This document shows, in pieces, positions 8,899 to 15,245 of a stretch of 64,000 nucleotides of DNA. The notes below the pieces were generated by a model. That model saw nothing but the letters and a program-made list of their open reading frames with translations. It searched no databases and was not told the DNA's origin. Source of the DNA: Trueperaceae bacterium (lineage in GTDB: Bacteria > Deinococcota > Deinococci > Deinococcales > Trueperaceae); NCBI GenBank assembly GCA_965213705.1, contig OZ243913.1, forward strand, positions 1,984,001-2,048,000, read 5' to 3'. Each line of letters begins with the position of its first letter. The stretch's first letter is position 1. The position numbers and the translations under genes are program-made.

Positions 8899-9987
8899 TT
8901 ACGAAACCGTTACCGGAACGTTAGCAAGCTCAAGGCTCAAAAAAGCGTCGACCACCTGGGGGTCGAACTGCGCGCCACGCTGAACGAACAGTTCTCGTCT
9001 GGCCGCAGCGGGGGTCCAGCCCGCCTTGTAGGGCCGTTCTGAAACGAGCGCGTCGTAAACGTCGGTCACAGCAAAAATCCGGGCGAGCAAAGGTATGTCT
9101 GCGCCGCGCAGACCGTCGGGATAACCGCGGCCGTCAAAGCGTTCGTGGTGGTGACGCACGATTTGACGCACCGGCGTGGGCAAAAAGCCCACCCGTTGCA
9201 GCATCGCCTCGCCGCGGGTGACGTGGGTCTGAACGAGCGCGTACTCCTGCGCGGTGAGACGGCCCGCCTTGAGCAGGACGGGGTCGGGAATCGCCATCTT
9301 ACCGATGTCGTGGAGGTAAGCGCCCCAACGAAGGTGCACGAGCGCCCCTTCGGCCAAACCCAGAGCTTGGGCGAGCGCCAGAGACGAGTCGGCAACCCGG
9401 TCGGTGTGGCCTTTGGTTTCGTAGTCGCGGTATTCCAAACTCAGACCTATCATCCAGAGCGCTTCTTCGTGGCTCTGGGTGACCCTGCCGAGGGCGTTGG
9501 CGAGGTCGCGCGTGCGCGTTTCGACGGCGCTTTCCAACTCACGGTTGCGCGCTTGCAGGGCCAGGTTCAAAAAGCGGGTTTGCAGCAGGTTTTTAACCTT
9601 TAACAGCAGGTCCAACTTTTGAAAAGGTTTTGCCAAAAAATCGTTTGCTCCGGCCTGCAGCGCCTCAAAACGCACGGCGTCGTTCGCGAGCGAAGTCAGC
9701 ATCAAAACGGGCAAGTAGTCCAGGGGCGCGTGCTCGGTCCGCACGGCGGTCAAGACTTCCAAACCGCTCATAAAAGGCATGGTGATGTCGAGCAAAACGA
9801 GGTCGGGCTGGAACGCGGCGACGTGTCCGAGGGCCTGAGAAGCGTCGTCAACGCACAGAATATGCCGGTAACCCGCTTCTTTAAGCACATGTCTCAGCAA
9901 AACGAGCACGCTTTCCTGGTCGTCTACCAAGAGCAGACGCGCTTTTGACAGGTCCGGGGACGCGCTGTTTACCGAGACCTCATCCAT
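8899..9987 (-). CDS. Response regulator with HD-GYP cyclic-di-GMP phosphodiesterase domain (RpfG-like)
   Basis: Receiver motifs LLLVDD, LLDITMP, KP; HDIGK, HHHERFDGRGYPDGL, DVYDAL..RPYK. Confidence 0.92.
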   Translation of the reverse strand: MDEVSVNSASPDLSKARLLLVDDQESVLVLLRHVLKEAGYRHILCVDDASQALGHVAAFQPDLVLLDITMPFMSGLEVLTAVRTEHAPLDYLPVLMLTSLANDAVRFEALQAGANDFLAKPFQKLDLLLKVKNLLQTRFLNLALQARNRELESAVETRTRDLANALGRVTQSHEEALWMIGLSLEYRDYETKGHTDRVADSSLALAQALGLAEGALVHLRWGAYLHDIGKMAIPDPVLLKAGRLTAQEYALVQTHVTRGEAMLQRVGFLPTPVRQIVRHHHERFDGRGYPDGLRGADIPLLARIFAVTDVYDALVSERPYKAGWTPAAARRELFVQRGAQFDPQVVDAFLSLELANVPVTVS

Positions 9988-10177
9988 ACGAACATCCTTT
10001 TGGCGGCCCCCGCAAACAGGGAACGTGAACGGTTCTGGGCGCAAGCTGCAATAGGAGACGGAACCCTGCAGCGTGCTGATTCCATCTCCTATTGAGTTGA
10101 CTTTTAAAGTGGGTCTTGCAGTTCAGTCTTGTAGTCCACAAGTCTCACTTCGACGCCGTTTATTACAAGCGACCCCA

Positions 10178-10220
10178 GTTAGCAACGGGTTAGCAACCCC
10201 TGTTAACAGACTGCTAACCC
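10178..10220. promoter_or_regulatory. Array of four TG(C/T)TAAC heptamers in two divergent pairs, each with 11-bp period
   Basis: GTTAGCA at 10178 and 10189 (TGCTAAC on the minus strand); TGTTAAC at 10201 and TGCTAAC at 10212 on the plus strand. Confidence 0.65.
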
Positions 10221-10294
10221 AAGCTACGTAAAGTACGTGACAAGTGAGGTATCACACAGGTGGGGCAACTTCAAAAGGGATTGGGGAGATGGAT

Positions 10295-10420
10295 ATGAAA
10301 AAGGTAATGTTGACCGTGGTCGTTTTGGGTACGCTTCTCGGTGCGGGTTTGGGCTTTGCTCGGAACGCAAGCGATAACTTTCCAGGGCTGAACATCACGA
10401 CCGTCGACACTCGCTCTTAA
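10295..10420 (+). CDS. Unannotated 41-aa secreted propeptide (putative signalling peptide)
   Basis: Manual translation MKKVMLTVVVLGTLLGAGLGFA-RNASDNFPGLNITTVDTRS*; SD GGGGAG 6 nt upstream; n/h/c signal-peptide regions; below the ORF-track cutoff. Confidence 0.8.
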   Translation: MKKVMLTVVVLGTLLGAGLGFARNASDNFPGLNITTVDTRS

Positions 10421-10445
10421 AAAGCTTTGCGGCTCACTTACAAAC

Positions 10446-12905
10446 TCAACTGTTCAACCAGCTCTTGCGGACTTGCTCCGCTCGAGCTTTTATTATGGGA
10501 AAACGCGGGTCGCTGGTGTGAAGGGCCGCTTCGGCCGCTTCCCACAGTTCCAAGTCGGCAGGCATCTTTTCCGCCAGTGCCAGCAACGCTTCGGCGTCGT
10601 TCGACAAAAGCGTGGCTTGGCGCAACGCCTCCTCGGCCGCTTCGCGCGCCTCGACGATGCCGGGCGCTTCGGAGTCGGGCAGCAACGGGCCCCGGTACAG
10701 GTCCACGGCGCGCCGCACCCGTCCTTCGACCAACAGGTCGTGCAGGCTGAGAAAGTCCGCCTGGTAGCCCGTTTCCAGCCGGTAGGGTTGGTGGGACACC
10801 GGTACGTGTTTGCGCAGTTGCGACAGGGCCACCTTGACCGCGCCGCGACTGCCTTCGTCACCGTACAGCAGCAGCAAAATTTGTTCCAACGACAAACCCT
10901 GCTTGTTGAGGGCCAACAGCGCGAGGATGTCGCAGGCTTGGGGTGCCAGCTTGAGCAGTTTGTCGTTGAACCAGGCGTCGCGGCTGCCCAGAAAACGCAG
11001 TTCCAGGGGGAATTCGTGCCCGTTGAGCAGCGTCCATACCTCACGAAAATCACGCTCGGGACCTGACAACAGGGTAAGACCCGTCTGGGACAACTCCGAC
11101 AACCCTTGTTCGCCCTCCTTAAGAGCCAGCCTCGCCGCGTCGGTGTCACCTGTTTGCAAGTAGGCCCAAGCCAGGTACAAGGCTTTTTGGGTAACCAAGT
11201 GAACCGGCGGCGTGTAACTTTCGTCCTTGGGGGTAAGGGCGAGCTGGCGTCGGCCCGACTCGGGGTCGCTCATCGCCAGGGCCATACCGTAAGCGAGGTG
11301 GGCCGTATAACTGAAGTTTGCGGACTCGCCCGCCGTGAGCACTTTTGCTTGGGTCGCCAAGTTCAGCGCGGCGTCGTGTTCGCCGAGGTGAAGCAGGGCT
11401 TGGGTTACGCCCAAAACATTTTCACCCGACATGACGCGGGACGCCGCCGCCCAATTTTTTCGGTAGTACACGAGCGCTTTTTCGGCCTCGCCGGTCGCGA
11501 GTAGATAGTCCCCCAGAGTTTCCCGGTAGAGCTGGGCCAAGGCGGGAAAAGCCTCGGCGAGTTGGGTTTCGCCCTCGCGTAAGCGCTCCAACAGACCGGC
11601 CGTTTCACCTATCAAAATGCGCGCGAAGGCCCAGTTGTTGACTAAGAGCAACCGTCTTTGGGCGTTGCCCAGACCGTGCCGGTCAAACTGGGTTAGGGTC
11701 CAGTCGCCCCAGTAGACCGCCTCGTTGTAACGACCGATGTCGATGAGTTGGTTCATGAGTTCACCAGCGTTGCGCGTGACTTCGTAAGCCCGCCCTTTGT
11801 GCTCGGCGAGGCGGACGGCCCGCTGCAACACTTGTACGCGTTCCTCTCTATCTGAGAGCCTGCGTCCGTACTGGTAAACGCTCAAAGGAGAGGCTTGCGC
11901 CCGGTACGCCCGCTCGGCCTCGTTTTCCGCCGTTTCGATAGGCGCGAGCACGCCCGCGTAGAGTGCGCGCAGGTCGGGGGCTTCGCGGACAGCCAAAAAG
12001 CGTTCGACGCTTTCACGTATGTGTTCGGCCTTGCCCAGCCAACCCCCGGCCGACAGTTGCCAGAACAACACGGTTTCGTCTTGCAGGTGTTCGGGTAGGT
12101 CTTGTAAAAGCTCCCACAGGCGTTTGTGCAACCCGCGCTCGTGGTACAGGTGGCCCGCTTGCTTGAGAATGTCCGGCACCCGCTCCGGCAGCGCGGTCAC
12201 TGCGAGCTCGAGCGCTTCGGTCCACTTGTCCCTGGCGCTGAGGACTTTGAGCAGCGTTTCCGGGTCGACCTCGACCGCCTGACCCTCGGGCAACCTGGGG
12301 CCGTCGGGTCCGGGGCGCAGTGGGGTAGGCAGGTGCAAGCGACCGTGCAACCGGGTGGTGAAAGCCTCGAAAGCCCCGTCGCTTTTGTGCAGCAACTCGT
12401 CGACTTCTCCGGGCAATAAGTCGCCCGCCAGTTCAAAAGCTTCTGCGCGGCTGAGCCGCAACTCGGCCGCGCGGAGTACGAGCGCCGTGGCGGGCAAGTC
12501 GAGGTCGTCGGGCAACCGTGAAAAAGCGAGCACCACGCGGCTGCCGCTACGGTTGAGGGCCGTCAGAGCGGTCGCGAACTCGGCACCGTACTCGGCGTTC
12601 GAGAGTAAAAAAGTAAAAGGCCCCAACAGTTCCAAGTGCAGGTCCAAAACTTTGAGCCCGTAGCTGTATGGTAAGGAATACTCGAAGAGCGCGTTTCCCA
12701 AAGTCTTTTTGATACCCTCGGCGAGCAGGTTGCCCTGCGCGACCGGGTCTTCTTGTTCACTTGTACCGAACTCGAGCCAAACAGGTGTCGCCGCGGCGTC
12801 TTTCAAGGCGCTGATGATGTGTTGCGTCCCGAACGACGCCGCGCCCGCCAAAACGACGGGTCCGAGATGAGCGCCGATAAGTTTTAAACGGTTGGACAGC
12901 CACAT
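10446..12905 (-). CDS. Large TPR-repeat transcriptional regulator with C-terminal OmpR-type wHTH/BTAD (SARP-like) region
   Basis: Helical TPR-like repeats; C-terminal LELRFLG...ILALLAL..GLSLEQI..LLYGD..AVKVALSQLRK..PYRL..AVDLYRGPLLP; start reset to ATG 12905 after GAGG. Confidence 0.8.
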   Translation of the reverse strand: MWLSNRLKLIGAHLGPVVLAGAASFGTQHIISALKDAAATPVWLEFGTSEQEDPVAQGNLLAEGIKKTLGNALFEYSLPYSYGLKVLDLHLELLGPFTFLLSNAEYGAEFATALTALNRSGSRVVLAFSRLPDDLDLPATALVLRAAELRLSRAEAFELAGDLLPGEVDELLHKSDGAFEAFTTRLHGRLHLPTPLRPGPDGPRLPEGQAVEVDPETLLKVLSARDKWTEALELAVTALPERVPDILKQAGHLYHERGLHKRLWELLQDLPEHLQDETVLFWQLSAGGWLGKAEHIRESVERFLAVREAPDLRALYAGVLAPIETAENEAERAYRAQASPLSVYQYGRRLSDREERVQVLQRAVRLAEHKGRAYEVTRNAGELMNQLIDIGRYNEAVYWGDWTLTQFDRHGLGNAQRRLLLVNNWAFARILIGETAGLLERLREGETQLAEAFPALAQLYRETLGDYLLATGEAEKALVYYRKNWAAASRVMSGENVLGVTQALLHLGEHDAALNLATQAKVLTAGESANFSYTAHLAYGMALAMSDPESGRRQLALTPKDESYTPPVHLVTQKALYLAWAYLQTGDTDAARLALKEGEQGLSELSQTGLTLLSGPERDFREVWTLLNGHEFPLELRFLGSRDAWFNDKLLKLAPQACDILALLALNKQGLSLEQILLLLYGDEGSRGAVKVALSQLRKHVPVSHQPYRLETGYQADFLSLHDLLVEGRVRRAVDLYRGPLLPDSEAPGIVEAREAAEEALRQATLLSNDAEALLALAEKMPADLELWEAAEAALHTSDPRFPIIKARAEQVRKSWLNS

Positions 12906-13115: not shown

Positions 13116-13538
13116 TCAACCGAGCCGGTCCGCACGGACCAAGCCACTTACCAACCACACGGGCGGCGCGGCCGCTTGCGGCTCTTCGACGAGGCTGAAC
13201 AAATAAGGTGTTGCGGCGCCGTTTTTCTCGACCACAACGGTCTGCCGCGCCGCCCGCCCGCGGCGCTCAAGAGGCTCGGCGCGCGACCGGGCGTGCCCCA
13301 GCAGCGGCGCATAAAGCTCGTTGTGCAAAACGCGTTTGAGGGTGGCTAAGTCCCCGACCTGGCCGCGCAACTTGGCTGCGGCGAACCTGTACAGGGTCTC
13401 GACGCCCGCGTCTGCACGGGGCGAGTCGTTGTGCCGCAACGCCGTCAAGAGCAGTGCAACAACGCCTTCAGGCCCCAGGTCGGGACGAGGCAGGTCAAGG
13501 TGGGGCGTTACGGGTTCTTGACCGTCGTCACGGTTCAC
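13116..13538 (-). CDS. Hypothetical protein (DUF4864-like, NTF2-like)
   Basis: P.PDL.PE.VV..LL.AL..ND.P..DAG...YRFA..Y.PLL.H..WLV pattern. Confidence 0.65.
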   Translation of the reverse strand: MNRDDGQEPVTPHLDLPRPDLGPEGVVALLLTALRHNDSPRADAGVETLYRFAAAKLRGQVGDLATLKRVLHNELYAPLLGHARSRAEPLERRGRAARQTVVVEKNGAATPYLFSLVEEPQAAAPPVWLVSGLVRADRLG

Positions 13539-13547
13539 AGGCTCGGG

Positions 13548-14984
13548 TCAGCGCGGCAAACCCAAAGAGACGTACTTCGTTTCCAAGTACTCGTCGATGC
13601 CCCAGTGCCCGCCCTCGCGGCCCAAACCCGACTGTTTGACGCCGCCGAAGGGCACGTACGGCGTCGAGGGTACACCGTCGTTCACCCCGATGATGCCGTA
13701 GTCCAACGCCTCGGCCACCCGAAAAGCGCGGCTCAGGTCGTTGGTGTAAAAGTAGGCCGCCAGACCGTAGGGCGTGTCGTTGGCGAGTCTTACCGCTTCT
13801 TCCTCGGTGTCGAACGAAATGACCGGCGCGACCGGCCCAAAGGTCTCCTCGCTCATGAGGAGCATGTCGCTCGTGACGCCGGTCAGGACGGTCGGCTCGA
13901 AGTAAAAGCCGTCCAGCGCGTGGCCGCCGGTCACCAGTTCGGCTCCCTTTTGCAGGGCGTCTGCGACGTGGGTCTTGACTTTCTCGAGACCTTGCGCATC
14001 AACCAGCGGCCCGATGTCGGTGCTCGCGTCCAGCGGGTCGCCGACGGTGAGCTGCCGCGCGGCGGCGGCGTAACGTTCGGTAAAGGCGTCCAGCACCGAC
14101 GCTTGAACGTAAATTCGGTTGGTACACACGCACGTTTGGCCGGCGTTGCGGTACTTGCAGGCCATCGCCTCGGTGACGGCGCGCTCTATGTCGGCGTCCT
14201 CGAACACGATGAAAGGCGCGTGCCCGCCGAGTTCCAGCGAAATCTTCTTGACCGTGTCGGCCGCCTTTTTGTACAAAATCTTGCCGACCTCGGTCGAGCC
14301 GGTAAAGGTGATTTTGCGTATGCGCGGGTCGGCGAGCAGCGTGTCGGACAGTTCGACCGGGTCCCGGCAGGGCAAAACTTGCAGCGTTCCGGCGGGGCCG
14401 CCCGCCTCTTCCCACAGCGCCGCCAGGTGCAGCGCGCTCAGCGGCGTCTGTTCGGCCGGTTTGAGAATAAAGGTGCAACCCGCCGCCAGCGCGGGCGCGG
14501 CCTTACGCGTCACCATCGCCGCCGGAAAGTTCCAGGGTGTCACGGCGAATACCGGGCCGACCGGCTGTTTGAGGGCGAGCAGGCGTTTGTCCGCGACGTG
14601 GCTCGGCATCGTCTCGCCGTAGACGCGTTTGGCTTCTTCGGCGTACCACTTGACGAACCCCGCGGCGTAGGCGATTTCGCCGCGCGACTCTTTGATGGGT
14701 TTGCCCATCTCCTCGGTCATGGTGCGGGCGAGGTCGTCCTGGTTCGCCAGGATGAGGTCATGCCAGCGCATGAGTATTTCGCTGCGCTCGAAGGCGGTGG
14801 TCGCTTTCCAGGTCTCAAACGCACCCGTGGCCGTTTCGGCGGCCTGCGCAGCCTCGTTCGCGCCGCAGTCGGCGACTTCGGCGACGGTTTCGCCCGTGGC
14901 GGGGTTGGTGACCTTGAAGGTCCGCTTTGCCTCGTGCCAGGTGTCGGTGAGGTAGCGGGGTCGGGATGAATCTAAAATAGCCAT
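13548..14984 (-). CDS. gabD: NAD(P)-dependent succinate-semialdehyde dehydrogenase
   Basis: TPWNFP, FTGSTEVG, LELGGHAPF, RNAGQTCVC, EETFGP, PFGGVKQSGLGREG; TACACT 5 nt before ATG 14984. Confidence 0.9.
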   Translation of the reverse strand: MAILDSSRPRYLTDTWHEAKRTFKVTNPATGETVAEVADCGANEAAQAAETATGAFETWKATTAFERSEILMRWHDLILANQDDLARTMTEEMGKPIKESRGEIAYAAGFVKWYAEEAKRVYGETMPSHVADKRLLALKQPVGPVFAVTPWNFPAAMVTRKAAPALAAGCTFILKPAEQTPLSALHLAALWEEAGGPAGTLQVLPCRDPVELSDTLLADPRIRKITFTGSTEVGKILYKKAADTVKKISLELGGHAPFIVFEDADIERAVTEAMACKYRNAGQTCVCTNRIYVQASVLDAFTERYAAAARQLTVGDPLDASTDIGPLVDAQGLEKVKTHVADALQKGAELVTGGHALDGFYFEPTVLTGVTSDMLLMSEETFGPVAPVISFDTEEEAVRLANDTPYGLAAYFYTNDLSRAFRVAEALDYGIIGVNDGVPSTPYVPFGGVKQSGLGREGGHWGIDEYLETKYVSLGLPR

Positions 14985-15245
14985 AGTCAAGTGTAGCAAG
15001 GCGGGGTATTAGAAAGGCAACCCGCGCTTCATGACCCTGCTTTGACCCGTTTGGGTGTCAGCGCTCGAGCACAGACATTGACCTGAAGGGTGCCAGCGTT
15101 CGAGGTCTGCAACGTGGGTCTCGAGCCCCCGGCTTTTTGAAGATTAATCTTTTTGAGGTCGGTCGAGATGGCGGCTCGAGTGGGCTCCCACTTGTCGACA
15201 GGGGTCCGTGTAACTCAAAACAGGAAGCTCCTGTCGTCCAAGCTT

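Follow-up and report, generated by a model that had tools for sequence, protein, structure and literature searches.

A recurrent trio of peptide gene, TPR regulator and cyclic di-GMP enzyme gene in Deinococcota, likely a peptide signalling circuit with a distinctive receptor

The locus and its peptide gene

The window analysed here is a stretch of 64,000 nt from the genome of a Trueperaceae bacterium (Deinococcota; GCA_965213705.1, contig OZ243913.1, positions 1,984,001 to 2,048,000), and the system in question occupies positions 8899 to 12905 of it. Three genes lie there, a small open reading frame (sORF) for a putative secreted peptide, a large regulator with tetratricopeptide repeats (TPR) and a response regulator predicted to break down cyclic di-GMP (c-di-GMP), all of them where a preliminary description of this DNA had placed them:

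8899-9987, minus strand: REC-HD-GYP response regulator of 362 aa, predicted c-di-GMP phosphodiesterase and likely output gene, divergent from the sORF
10283-10288, plus strand: Shine–Dalgarno sequence (SD) GGGGAG, 6 nt ahead of the ATG, with the same letters in the sister species
10295-10420, plus strand: sORF encoding a predicted propeptide of 41 aa
10295-10360, plus strand: predicted Sec signal peptide, propeptide residues 1-22, with the n/h/c pattern and in keeping with the -3/-1 rule
10361-10420, plus strand: predicted exported tail of 19 aa, RNASDNFPGLNITTVDTRS, and stop; candidate signal or precursor of the signal
10446-12905, minus strand: regulator gene, 819 aa, convergent with the sORF, 25 nt between the two stops

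The propeptide has a basic n-region (MKK), an uncharged h-region with a 10-residue hydrophobic stretch and a G-F-A|R site after residue 22. This call, like those for all sORFs below, was made with in-house rules (basic n-region, uncharged h-region, small residues at -3 and -1) and not with SignalP. Comparison with the sister species (locus L035, whose regulator is 85% identical to that of the window) shows 8 silent and 1 replacement codon in the signal region (first 22 codons) and 4 silent and 8 replacement codons in the tail (last 19 codons), indicating that the sORF is under selection as a protein, with the export signal conserved and the tail changing faster. Thus the gene proposed in the preliminary description, with its SD, signal peptide and 19-residue tail, appears to be real; it had been presented as missed by the open reading frame track, but is already annotated as a protein in the public NCBI/ENA gene sets. 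The same detector finds only 40 comparable signal-peptide sORFs in the 4.25-Mb genome of the window, 16 of them intergenic. No matching model for the peptides was found in Pfam or NCBIfam, and the window peptide as sole query against 364 genomes of the phylum recovered the sister species and two chance matches only, because the tails are too divergent.

The regulator, earlier put at about 820 aa and convergent with the sORF, is found at 819 aa with the stops 25 nt apart as described, and the assignment of the divergent gene to the HD-GYP response regulators is upheld by Pfam (Response_reg, E = 8e-26; HD_5, E = 1e-36) and by its motifs. Both LHDIGK and HHERFDGRGYP, the latter conforming to HHExxDGxGYP, appear intact, and the NCBIfam model for NosR-family c-di-GMP phosphodiesterases matches at E = 3e-58, which is below the cut-off of that model.

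Recurrence of the peptide gene beside the regulator

Relatives of the regulator at E ≤ 0.001 are present in 224 of 364 Deinococcota genomes and in 112 of the 127 genomes of the window's family, many of the matches outside the family being weak and partial. The source names of the homologues are Truepera, Trueperaceae and Meiothermus; 690 representatives with no taxonomy attached score E ≤ 1e-30. Loci were drawn from 150 listed regulator matches, 197 further matches lying beyond the listing. Of the listed matches, the window's own, two from genome G324 and a second one within another locus were set aside, and 140 of the 146 left were examined with 4-kb flanks. The near-duplicates L037 and L051 were excluded from the counts, as were, where stated, regulators covering fewer than 600 profile positions or without 800-nt flanks. 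G324 enters the tallies of regulator matches and of BamA as one genome, and no other claim depends on it. The loci are related by descent and their counts are not independent trials; one clade, clade b, makes up about half of them. Of two pattern scans for related loci, one gave none and the other a single weak, TPR-only match outside the phylum.

Loci and controls were put through an identical sORF detector, which asks for 28-80 aa with an SD, an n-region and an h-region and for the absence of a second hydrophobic segment. It finds a signal-peptide sORF no more than 800 nt from the regulator at 62 of 111 loci, against 12 of 562 genes for proteins of 500-1200 aa in the window's own genome. The preliminary description had staked its case on such sORFs being found beside homologous regulators, and this holds when clade c is left out, with 53 of 88 loci against the same 12/562. 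Removal of sORFs inside long open reading frames leaves 50/112 regulators, compared with 7/562 controls and 11/254 far sides of neighbouring genes. Allowing for hidden Markov models (HMMs) of the peptides and a distance of 1.6 kb raises the count to 71 of 88 loci, a figure that is partly circular, and a relaxed look at the loci without a peptide recovered one plausible case, L070. The conservative figure of 53/88 leaves out the 27 clade-c loci, whose 33-aa peptides were considered as partners of the window-type regulator and rejected, since they go with a second receptor (described below) in 26/30 loci. Large TPR regulators do not generally attract signal-peptide sORFs, since among 30 AfsR-type regulators examined in the same way only 1 of the 18 distant ones with adequate flanks had one.

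Both the layout and the type of tail track the receptor clade on the tree, with three orientations and with tails that are unrelated across the tree:

Convergent downstream peptide: window, L035, L041, L045, L048-L052, L152-L162
Same-strand downstream peptide: L056-L072
Divergent upstream peptide with a C-terminal D-x-D-x-G end: clade b

That the pairing appears to be kept across clades despite unrelated tails is a stronger point than the raw counts. In addition, seven clade-b precursors carry a tandem 12-13-mer in 2-4 copies. The repeat unit is ADTSGQPNEYDVG in the precursor of L086 and QTSNQPGEYDVG in that of L139, each with four copies; L090 has three, L082 at least three, and L080, L106 and L113 two each. 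Multi-copy propeptides have been described for Rap-Phr (PMC11343458; statements on published work, here and below, refer to the accessible parts of the cited papers).

Clade b also has a conserved open reading frame of 60-70 aa between its two-armed promoter (see below) and the regulator, 40-350 nt upstream of the latter (for example in L099, L118, L083 and L110). It begins M-T-R-E-E-A-L-E-R-L or similar and is possibly an anti-activator or partner.

Architecture of the regulator

Three regions can be distinguished in the regulator, the last two with approximate boundaries:

12366-12905, minus strand: residues 1-180, degenerate MalT-type STAND nucleotide-binding domain (NOD), from hhalign
11010-12365, minus strand: residues ~181-632, linker and TPR sensor region, the predicted peptide-binding part
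10446-11009, minus strand: residues ~633-819, OmpR-type winged helix-turn-helix (wHTH) and BTAD-like region, together a SARP module

The N-terminal 180 residues align by hhalign with a pair of MalT-like AAA_16 proteins (P = 93.7%, E = 1.8e-7, 174 columns) in which the P-loop is intact; for the C-terminal half, alignment to one of these two proteins has P = 96%. In the regulator family the P-loop is lost: the Walker A motif GxxxxGK[ST] is present in 0/137 homologues, the G being retained in 135/137 and the K in none. MalT was not among the PDB proteins reached by an HMM built on the N-terminal region, and so the assignment of the NOD rests on hhalign, on look-alikes in the Atlas and on comparison within the window's own genome. 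The best PDB match of this HMM, an isochorismatase at E = 0.0014, was taken as chance.

Pfam gives weak matches only for the window regulator (Trans_reg_C, E = 0.009). Across 59 aligned homologues it finds TPR_12 in 32, Trans_reg_C in 13, TPR_MalT in 12 and BTAD in 1; no GerE/LuxR helix-turn-helix match was obtained among the 59, and the AimR model matches one (E = 7e-4). Against the PDB, the regulator profile matches TPR proteins at profile positions 353-534 and, weakly, OmpR, RstA and CpxR; a RapJ match has E = 0.027. In the Atlas, the regulator meets its own Deinococcota cluster first and then MalT-winged-helix (WHD_MalT), AAA_22 and BTAD clusters, which is a lead and not an alignment. The order wHTH then BTAD in the SARP module is met weakly by Pfam and is backed by alignment to BTAD proteins of the same genome and by the Atlas. 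From the alignment to the MalT-like pair, the TPR and OmpR-type matches and the lost P-loop, the regulator therefore seems best described as NOD (degenerate)-TPR-wHTH-BTAD. The Pfam and PDB profiles agree with the TPR repeats and C-terminal OmpR/SARP-like region of the preliminary description, which had left the N-terminal degenerate STAND domain unnamed. Full-length homologues have ~800-860 aa, the gene is single-copy in the window's genome, and the five closest proteins differ most from one another in residues 521-600.

Candidate operators and promoters

Two pairs of heptamer direct repeats, pointing in opposite directions, lie between the HD-GYP gene and the peptide gene:

10162-10167, minus strand: candidate -10 box TGTAAT for the HD-GYP gene, 10 nt past the left-facing repeat pair and kept in the sister species
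10178-10195, minus strand: TGCTAAC-N4-TGCTAAC, left-facing, period 11 bp, candidate SARP-type operator facing the HD-GYP gene
10201-10218, plus strand: TGTTAAC-N4-TGCTAAC, right-facing, candidate operator for the peptide gene
10229-10234, plus strand: candidate -10 box TAAAGT for the peptide gene, 10 nt past the right-facing repeat

The sister species has kept both arms. The string GTTAGC-N5-GTTAGC is found once in the window's genome, and the right-facing repeat pair with at most 2 mismatches followed 10 nt on by a -10-like hexamer is found at three sites, two of which are the arms of the window; a genome-wide scan for a regulon thus yields one site beyond them. No sigma-70 consensus promoter was called for the peptide gene.

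The same period recurs upstream of the related peptide genes. A perfect 7-mer repeat at period 11 stands ahead of 52/98 peptide genes and is found in 49/3097 control upstream regions, while any other period from 8 to 22 is found at 3/98 peptide genes at most and shuffled sequences give 0.8. By group, the repeat is present in 45/51 cases in clade b, 6/20 in the downstream group, 1/19 in clade c and 0/8 among the peptides that close a radical-SAM operon. In clade b, TAnnnT follows the repeat at exactly 10 nt in 43 of 44 promoters, and 31 have a mirror repeat pair pointing towards the regulator operon, 25 of them with TAnnnT at the 10-nt distance. The two-armed design is thus common to the window and to clade b, the arms in the window facing the peptide gene and the HD-GYP gene.

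SARP operators consist of heptamers with 4-nt spacers beside the -10 box (PMC5930380, PMC10936776, PMC11301090). The geometry of the repeats fits the C-terminal SARP module of the regulator, which would bind them. A search of Rfam gave no match in 8 loci, the TGGGAG-rich leaders of the clade-c peptides included.

Cyclic di-GMP genes and other neighbours

Genes for EAL (55) or HD-GYP (19) proteins lie within the fetched ~4-kb flanks of 74/139 regulator loci, against 28/552 control genes, and of 67/112 loci when clade c is left out. Among the neighbours, a stand-alone EAL protein of ~270 aa is met most often, its gene following that of the clade-b peptide directly and on the same strand; HD-GYP proteins come third. 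EAL and HD-GYP are unrelated domains, and they substitute for each other between clades. Of 41 clade-b EAL proteins, 36 have E[AV]LxR, 35 DD, 39 EG[VI]E and 40 QG[YFW]. Moreover, 4 of the 10 HD-GYP genes in the window's genome adjoin a signal-peptide sORF (3/9 without the window locus), compared with 24 of 2199 genes. With this recurrence, the exchange of domains between clades and a two-armed box that faces both genes, the link to c-di-GMP turnover is stronger than had been claimed.

Opp/Dpp binding-protein genes are present in 21 loci, at most 200 nt past the regulator in 8 of these, and oligopeptidase F genes in 11, all raw counts with no control set; the window's genome has 13 Opp/Dpp-type systems. 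In L042, L044 and L055 a regulator with no detected peptide gene is followed by a same-strand Opp/Dpp operon, and these are possibly listeners for imported peptides.

A GGDEF gene lies directly upstream of the regulator in L066, L069, L070 and L072, and L066 and L070 have in addition an HD-GYP-like gene downstream of the peptide, so that genes for synthesis and breakdown stand at one locus. Two HD-GYP genes (L175:2634-3979 and L176:4661-5846, one with a cupin-like N-terminus) are each followed by a 44-aa signal-peptide sORF; no TPR regulator was found near these sORFs, which are possibly orphan peptides. Upstream of the window regulator and on the same strand (13116-14999) lie a succinate-semialdehyde-dehydrogenase-like aldehyde dehydrogenase gene and a DUF4864-like gene, the former also present beside the regulator in L035, L039 and L041.

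Proposed mechanism and alternatives

The trio of peptide gene, regulator and c-di-GMP enzyme gene recurs across Deinococcota and, judged from its sequences, is likely to be a peptide-based cell-to-cell circuit with a receptor unlike those of Bacillus and Streptococcus. We consider it fairly probable that the exported and re-imported peptide switches on the regulator, which induces the peptide gene and the c-di-GMP phosphodiesterase. On this model the 41-aa propeptide would be exported by Sec and trimmed, and an Opp/Dpp transporter would likely take its tail back into the cell, where the TPR region of the 819-aa regulator would likely bind it. The bound peptide would release the SARP module, activating both arms of the promoter, and more peptide together with more REC-HD-GYP phosphodiesterase would lower c-di-GMP at high signal. 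The signal would pass between cells and report their density, and the REC domain may provide a second, kinase-dependent input that is not encoded at the window locus. That peptide binding activates rather than inhibits the regulator we hold to be somewhat the better supported of the two directions, because of the auto-inhibition logic of STAND proteins, the positive-feedback layout of the locus and the case of AfsR, in which the NOD and TPR domains inhibit the SARP domain until it is activated (PMC10936776).

Several observations weigh against this model. Even after HMM rescue, 17/88 regulator loci are without a peptide gene, and kinship inflates all of the counts, with about half of the loci in clade b. 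The evidence for co-evolution of the TPR region with the tail is weak, with rho = 0.50 (p = 0.012) in 24 clade-b pairs, a family-wise p of 0.33 in a scan of windows, and rho = -0.18 in the other 9 regulator-peptide pairs; a first signal of rho = 0.62 shrank after controlling for clade. The sister species has no HD-GYP gene yet retains the peptide, the box and the regulator: only the last ~60 bases of REC-HD-GYP remain (L035:6430-6990, cf. window 8899-8960), by an intact promoter, so the output gene seems exchangeable. The DDFGxG loop is kept in only 1/41 clade-b EAL proteins, which makes their activity uncertain despite the metal-binding motifs. The repeat stands 8 bp from the -10 box in Streptomyces SARPs (PMC5930380, PMC10936776, PMC11301090) and 10 nt from the -10-like hexamer in the window. 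Finally, an outer membrane probably lies between the Sec-exported 2-kDa peptide and the medium, since BamA is found in 253/265 genomes of the phylum; it is present also in 75/80 genomes of the family and in the sister species. A search for BamA/Omp85 gave no match in the window's own genome, possibly owing to an assembly gap, a search miss or real loss. Loss of the outer membrane from the host family, an idea raised by this miss, was rejected given the 75/80.

The alternative that survives best, which we nevertheless regard as unlikely, is that the peptide is an output only, the regulator sensing a small molecule as MalT senses maltotriose and inducing an effector peptide together with the phosphodiesterase. 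The repeats mark the peptide gene as a likely target but do not show that the peptide is a ligand, the loci with no detectable peptide gene would be accounted for, and sugar inducers are described for MalT and GutR (PMC10936776). Against this, the pairing persists although the tails are unrelated between clades, the tandem 12-13-mers and the conserved C-terminal D-x-D-x-G end fit a processed signal, and the same pairing is seen in three receptor families.

Also improbable is a private signal, in which the peptide binds the regulator but remains periplasmic and is taken up again by the cell that made it, acting as a timer or as a sensor of envelope leakiness or confinement and not of density. 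Such confinement would suit hosts that appear to be diderm from the distribution of BamA, and no dedicated outer-membrane exporter is seen among the commonest neighbours. It fits less well with the divergence of the tail between close species (8/19 codons), suggestive of strain-specific dialects, with the multi-copy precursors, suggestive of selection for more signal, and with the missing BamA match in the window's own genome.

It is very unlikely that the peptide is sensed outside the cell by a membrane histidine kinase that phosphorylates REC-HD-GYP, the STAND regulator merely driving transcription of the locus. The window phosphodiesterase does have a receiver domain with no kinase gene adjacent to it; in clade b, however, the output is EAL on its own (~270 aa), for which no receiver match was obtained, and no kinase cluster was found among 30 neighbour representatives scanned.

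Least probable of all is that the sORF is a bacteriocin or the precursor of a ribosomally synthesised and post-translationally modified peptide (RiPP) whose cluster the regulator controls: in 8 loci (L036, L059, L068, L073, L075, L159, L165 and L167) a radical SAM/SPASM gene convergent with the regulator is followed directly by a signal-peptide sORF, a search upstream finding no separate precursor led by an SD, and an asparagine-synthase-type (lasso-cyclase-like) gene lies near L045, but the window locus is without a maturase, transporter or immunity gene, a Sec signal would take the substrate away from a cytoplasmic maturase, and in streptococci such operons are targets of peptide-Rgg pairs, the radical SAM/SPASM loci recalling the control of RiPP operons by Rgg/SHP (PMC13361665).

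Comparison with known systems

Cytoplasmic receptors for peptide signals have been described in Bacillota and in the mobile elements of this phylum. Two papers on such systems make no mention of Deinococcota in their accessible text (PMC10075063, PMC9765709). The exported-peptide circuit proposed here resembles the RRNPP systems treated there (Rap-Phr, NprR-NprX, PlcR-PapR, Rgg-SHP, AimR-AimP) in the small propeptide gene, with a Sec signal predicted by the in-house rules, beside a cytoplasmic TPR receptor, the variable C-terminal tail, the multi-copy precursors, the nearby Opp genes and the likely feedback on the peptide promoter. The propeptide of 41 aa lies within the 10-100 aa used to define RRNPP peptides, the partners elsewhere having mostly 38-69 aa and up to 107 when multi-copy, and receptor and propeptide genes are direct neighbours, with the 60-70-aa open reading frame in between in clade b. 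RRNPP receptors, however, have ~250-500 aa, against 819, and bear a helix-turn-helix or 3-helix bundle at the N-terminus as effector with the TPR C-terminal, whereas the window regulator has a STAND-derived N-terminus and a C-terminal wHTH-BTAD. The direct-repeat SARP-type boxes, the apparently diderm Deinococcota host and the recurrent c-di-GMP enzyme neighbours set it further apart. By these features the system would work like RRNPP and is not a member, its receptor differing in length and in the place of the effector (PMC10075063, PMC9765709), which agrees with its earlier description as analogous.

By the features tested, the predicted regulator is both a degenerate STAND protein and a SARP-type activator. 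It shares with MalT-type STAND proteins the order NOD, TPR sensor and C-terminal DNA-binding domain; MalT has a LuxR helix-turn-helix, a sugar ligand and the P-loop lysine, whereas the window regulator has wHTH-BTAD and a candidate peptide ligand, and the lysine is lost in 137/137 homologues. With SARP/AfsR it shares the OmpR-type wHTH and BTAD, the heptamer repeats with 4-nt spacers and the control by NOD and TPR domains, differing in its C-terminal SARP module and degenerate NOD (PMC10936776, PMC11301090, PMC5930380).

Within the phylum, Deinococcus DqsI/DqsR (N-acyl homoserine lactone) and LuxS/AI-2 likewise serve cell-cell signalling; their signals are small molecules made by enzymes, with no propeptide or TPR receptor (PMC6300522). 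Small signal-peptide proteins have been reported in D. deserti, with no link to a receptor in the accessible text (PMC4007540), and for thermophiles the available part of PMC6022435 gives no complete peptide system apart from a Thermotoga peptide. Our literature search found no paper on peptide-receptor pairs in Deinococcota, supplements (RRNPP_detector tables included) and most subscription papers being beyond its reach. The published RRNPP detector would skip a receptor of 819 aa. If the proposed circuit is real, Deinococcota arrived at this design anew, with a STAND/SARP scaffold and in cells probably bounded by an outer membrane, and a gene-encoded signal is linked directly to c-di-GMP turnover. 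The tandem-copy precursors point to the likely mature peptides and the repeats to the likely operators.

Other receptor families with peptide genes

A second candidate system in the same genome has a 568-aa TPR-wHTH-BTAD-like protein that lacks the NOD (L177:3409-6924, at 2873409-2876924 of contig C1). It is divergent from a 36-aa signal-peptide sORF, which a membrane HD-GYP gene follows, and its peptide family is present in 26 of its 30 best loci. A third candidate has a 958-aa AfsR-type SARP-NB-ARC-TPR protein (L179:6011-9040, at 4122011-4125040 of C1), which lies beside a WYL gene and faces a convergent signal-peptide sORF of 46 aa; each of its three closest orthologues has a comparable sORF with the end D-Y-D-T-G-x-G.

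Whether Deinococcota in general run peptide-pheromone circuits that evolved apart from RRNPP, with secreted peptides as ligands of NLR-like STAND/SARP factors, is in our judgement evenly balanced. At least three receptor architectures would then converge on c-di-GMP phosphodiesterases, namely the dead-ATPase NOD-TPR-SARP, the NOD-less TPR-SARP and the AfsR-type SARP-NB-ARC-TPR with its NTPase domain. PMC10936776 states that an inducer of the AfsR TPR domain is not known, and such circuits, if real, would give AfsR-type TPR sensors their first class of candidate ligands; whether the TPR sensors of AfsR-type STAND regulators bind an inducer becomes testable.

The leaders of the second system contain several TGGGAG repeats and almost no 11-bp repeats, and have no match in Rfam. 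The sORFs of the third (L179, L213-L215, L217, L227) encode 41-54 aa and mostly end D-Y-[DN]-T-G-x-G. In L174:6614-10847, two 46-aa signal-peptide-like sORFs lie upstream of a gene for a BTAD-NB-ARC-TPR protein of 1078 aa.

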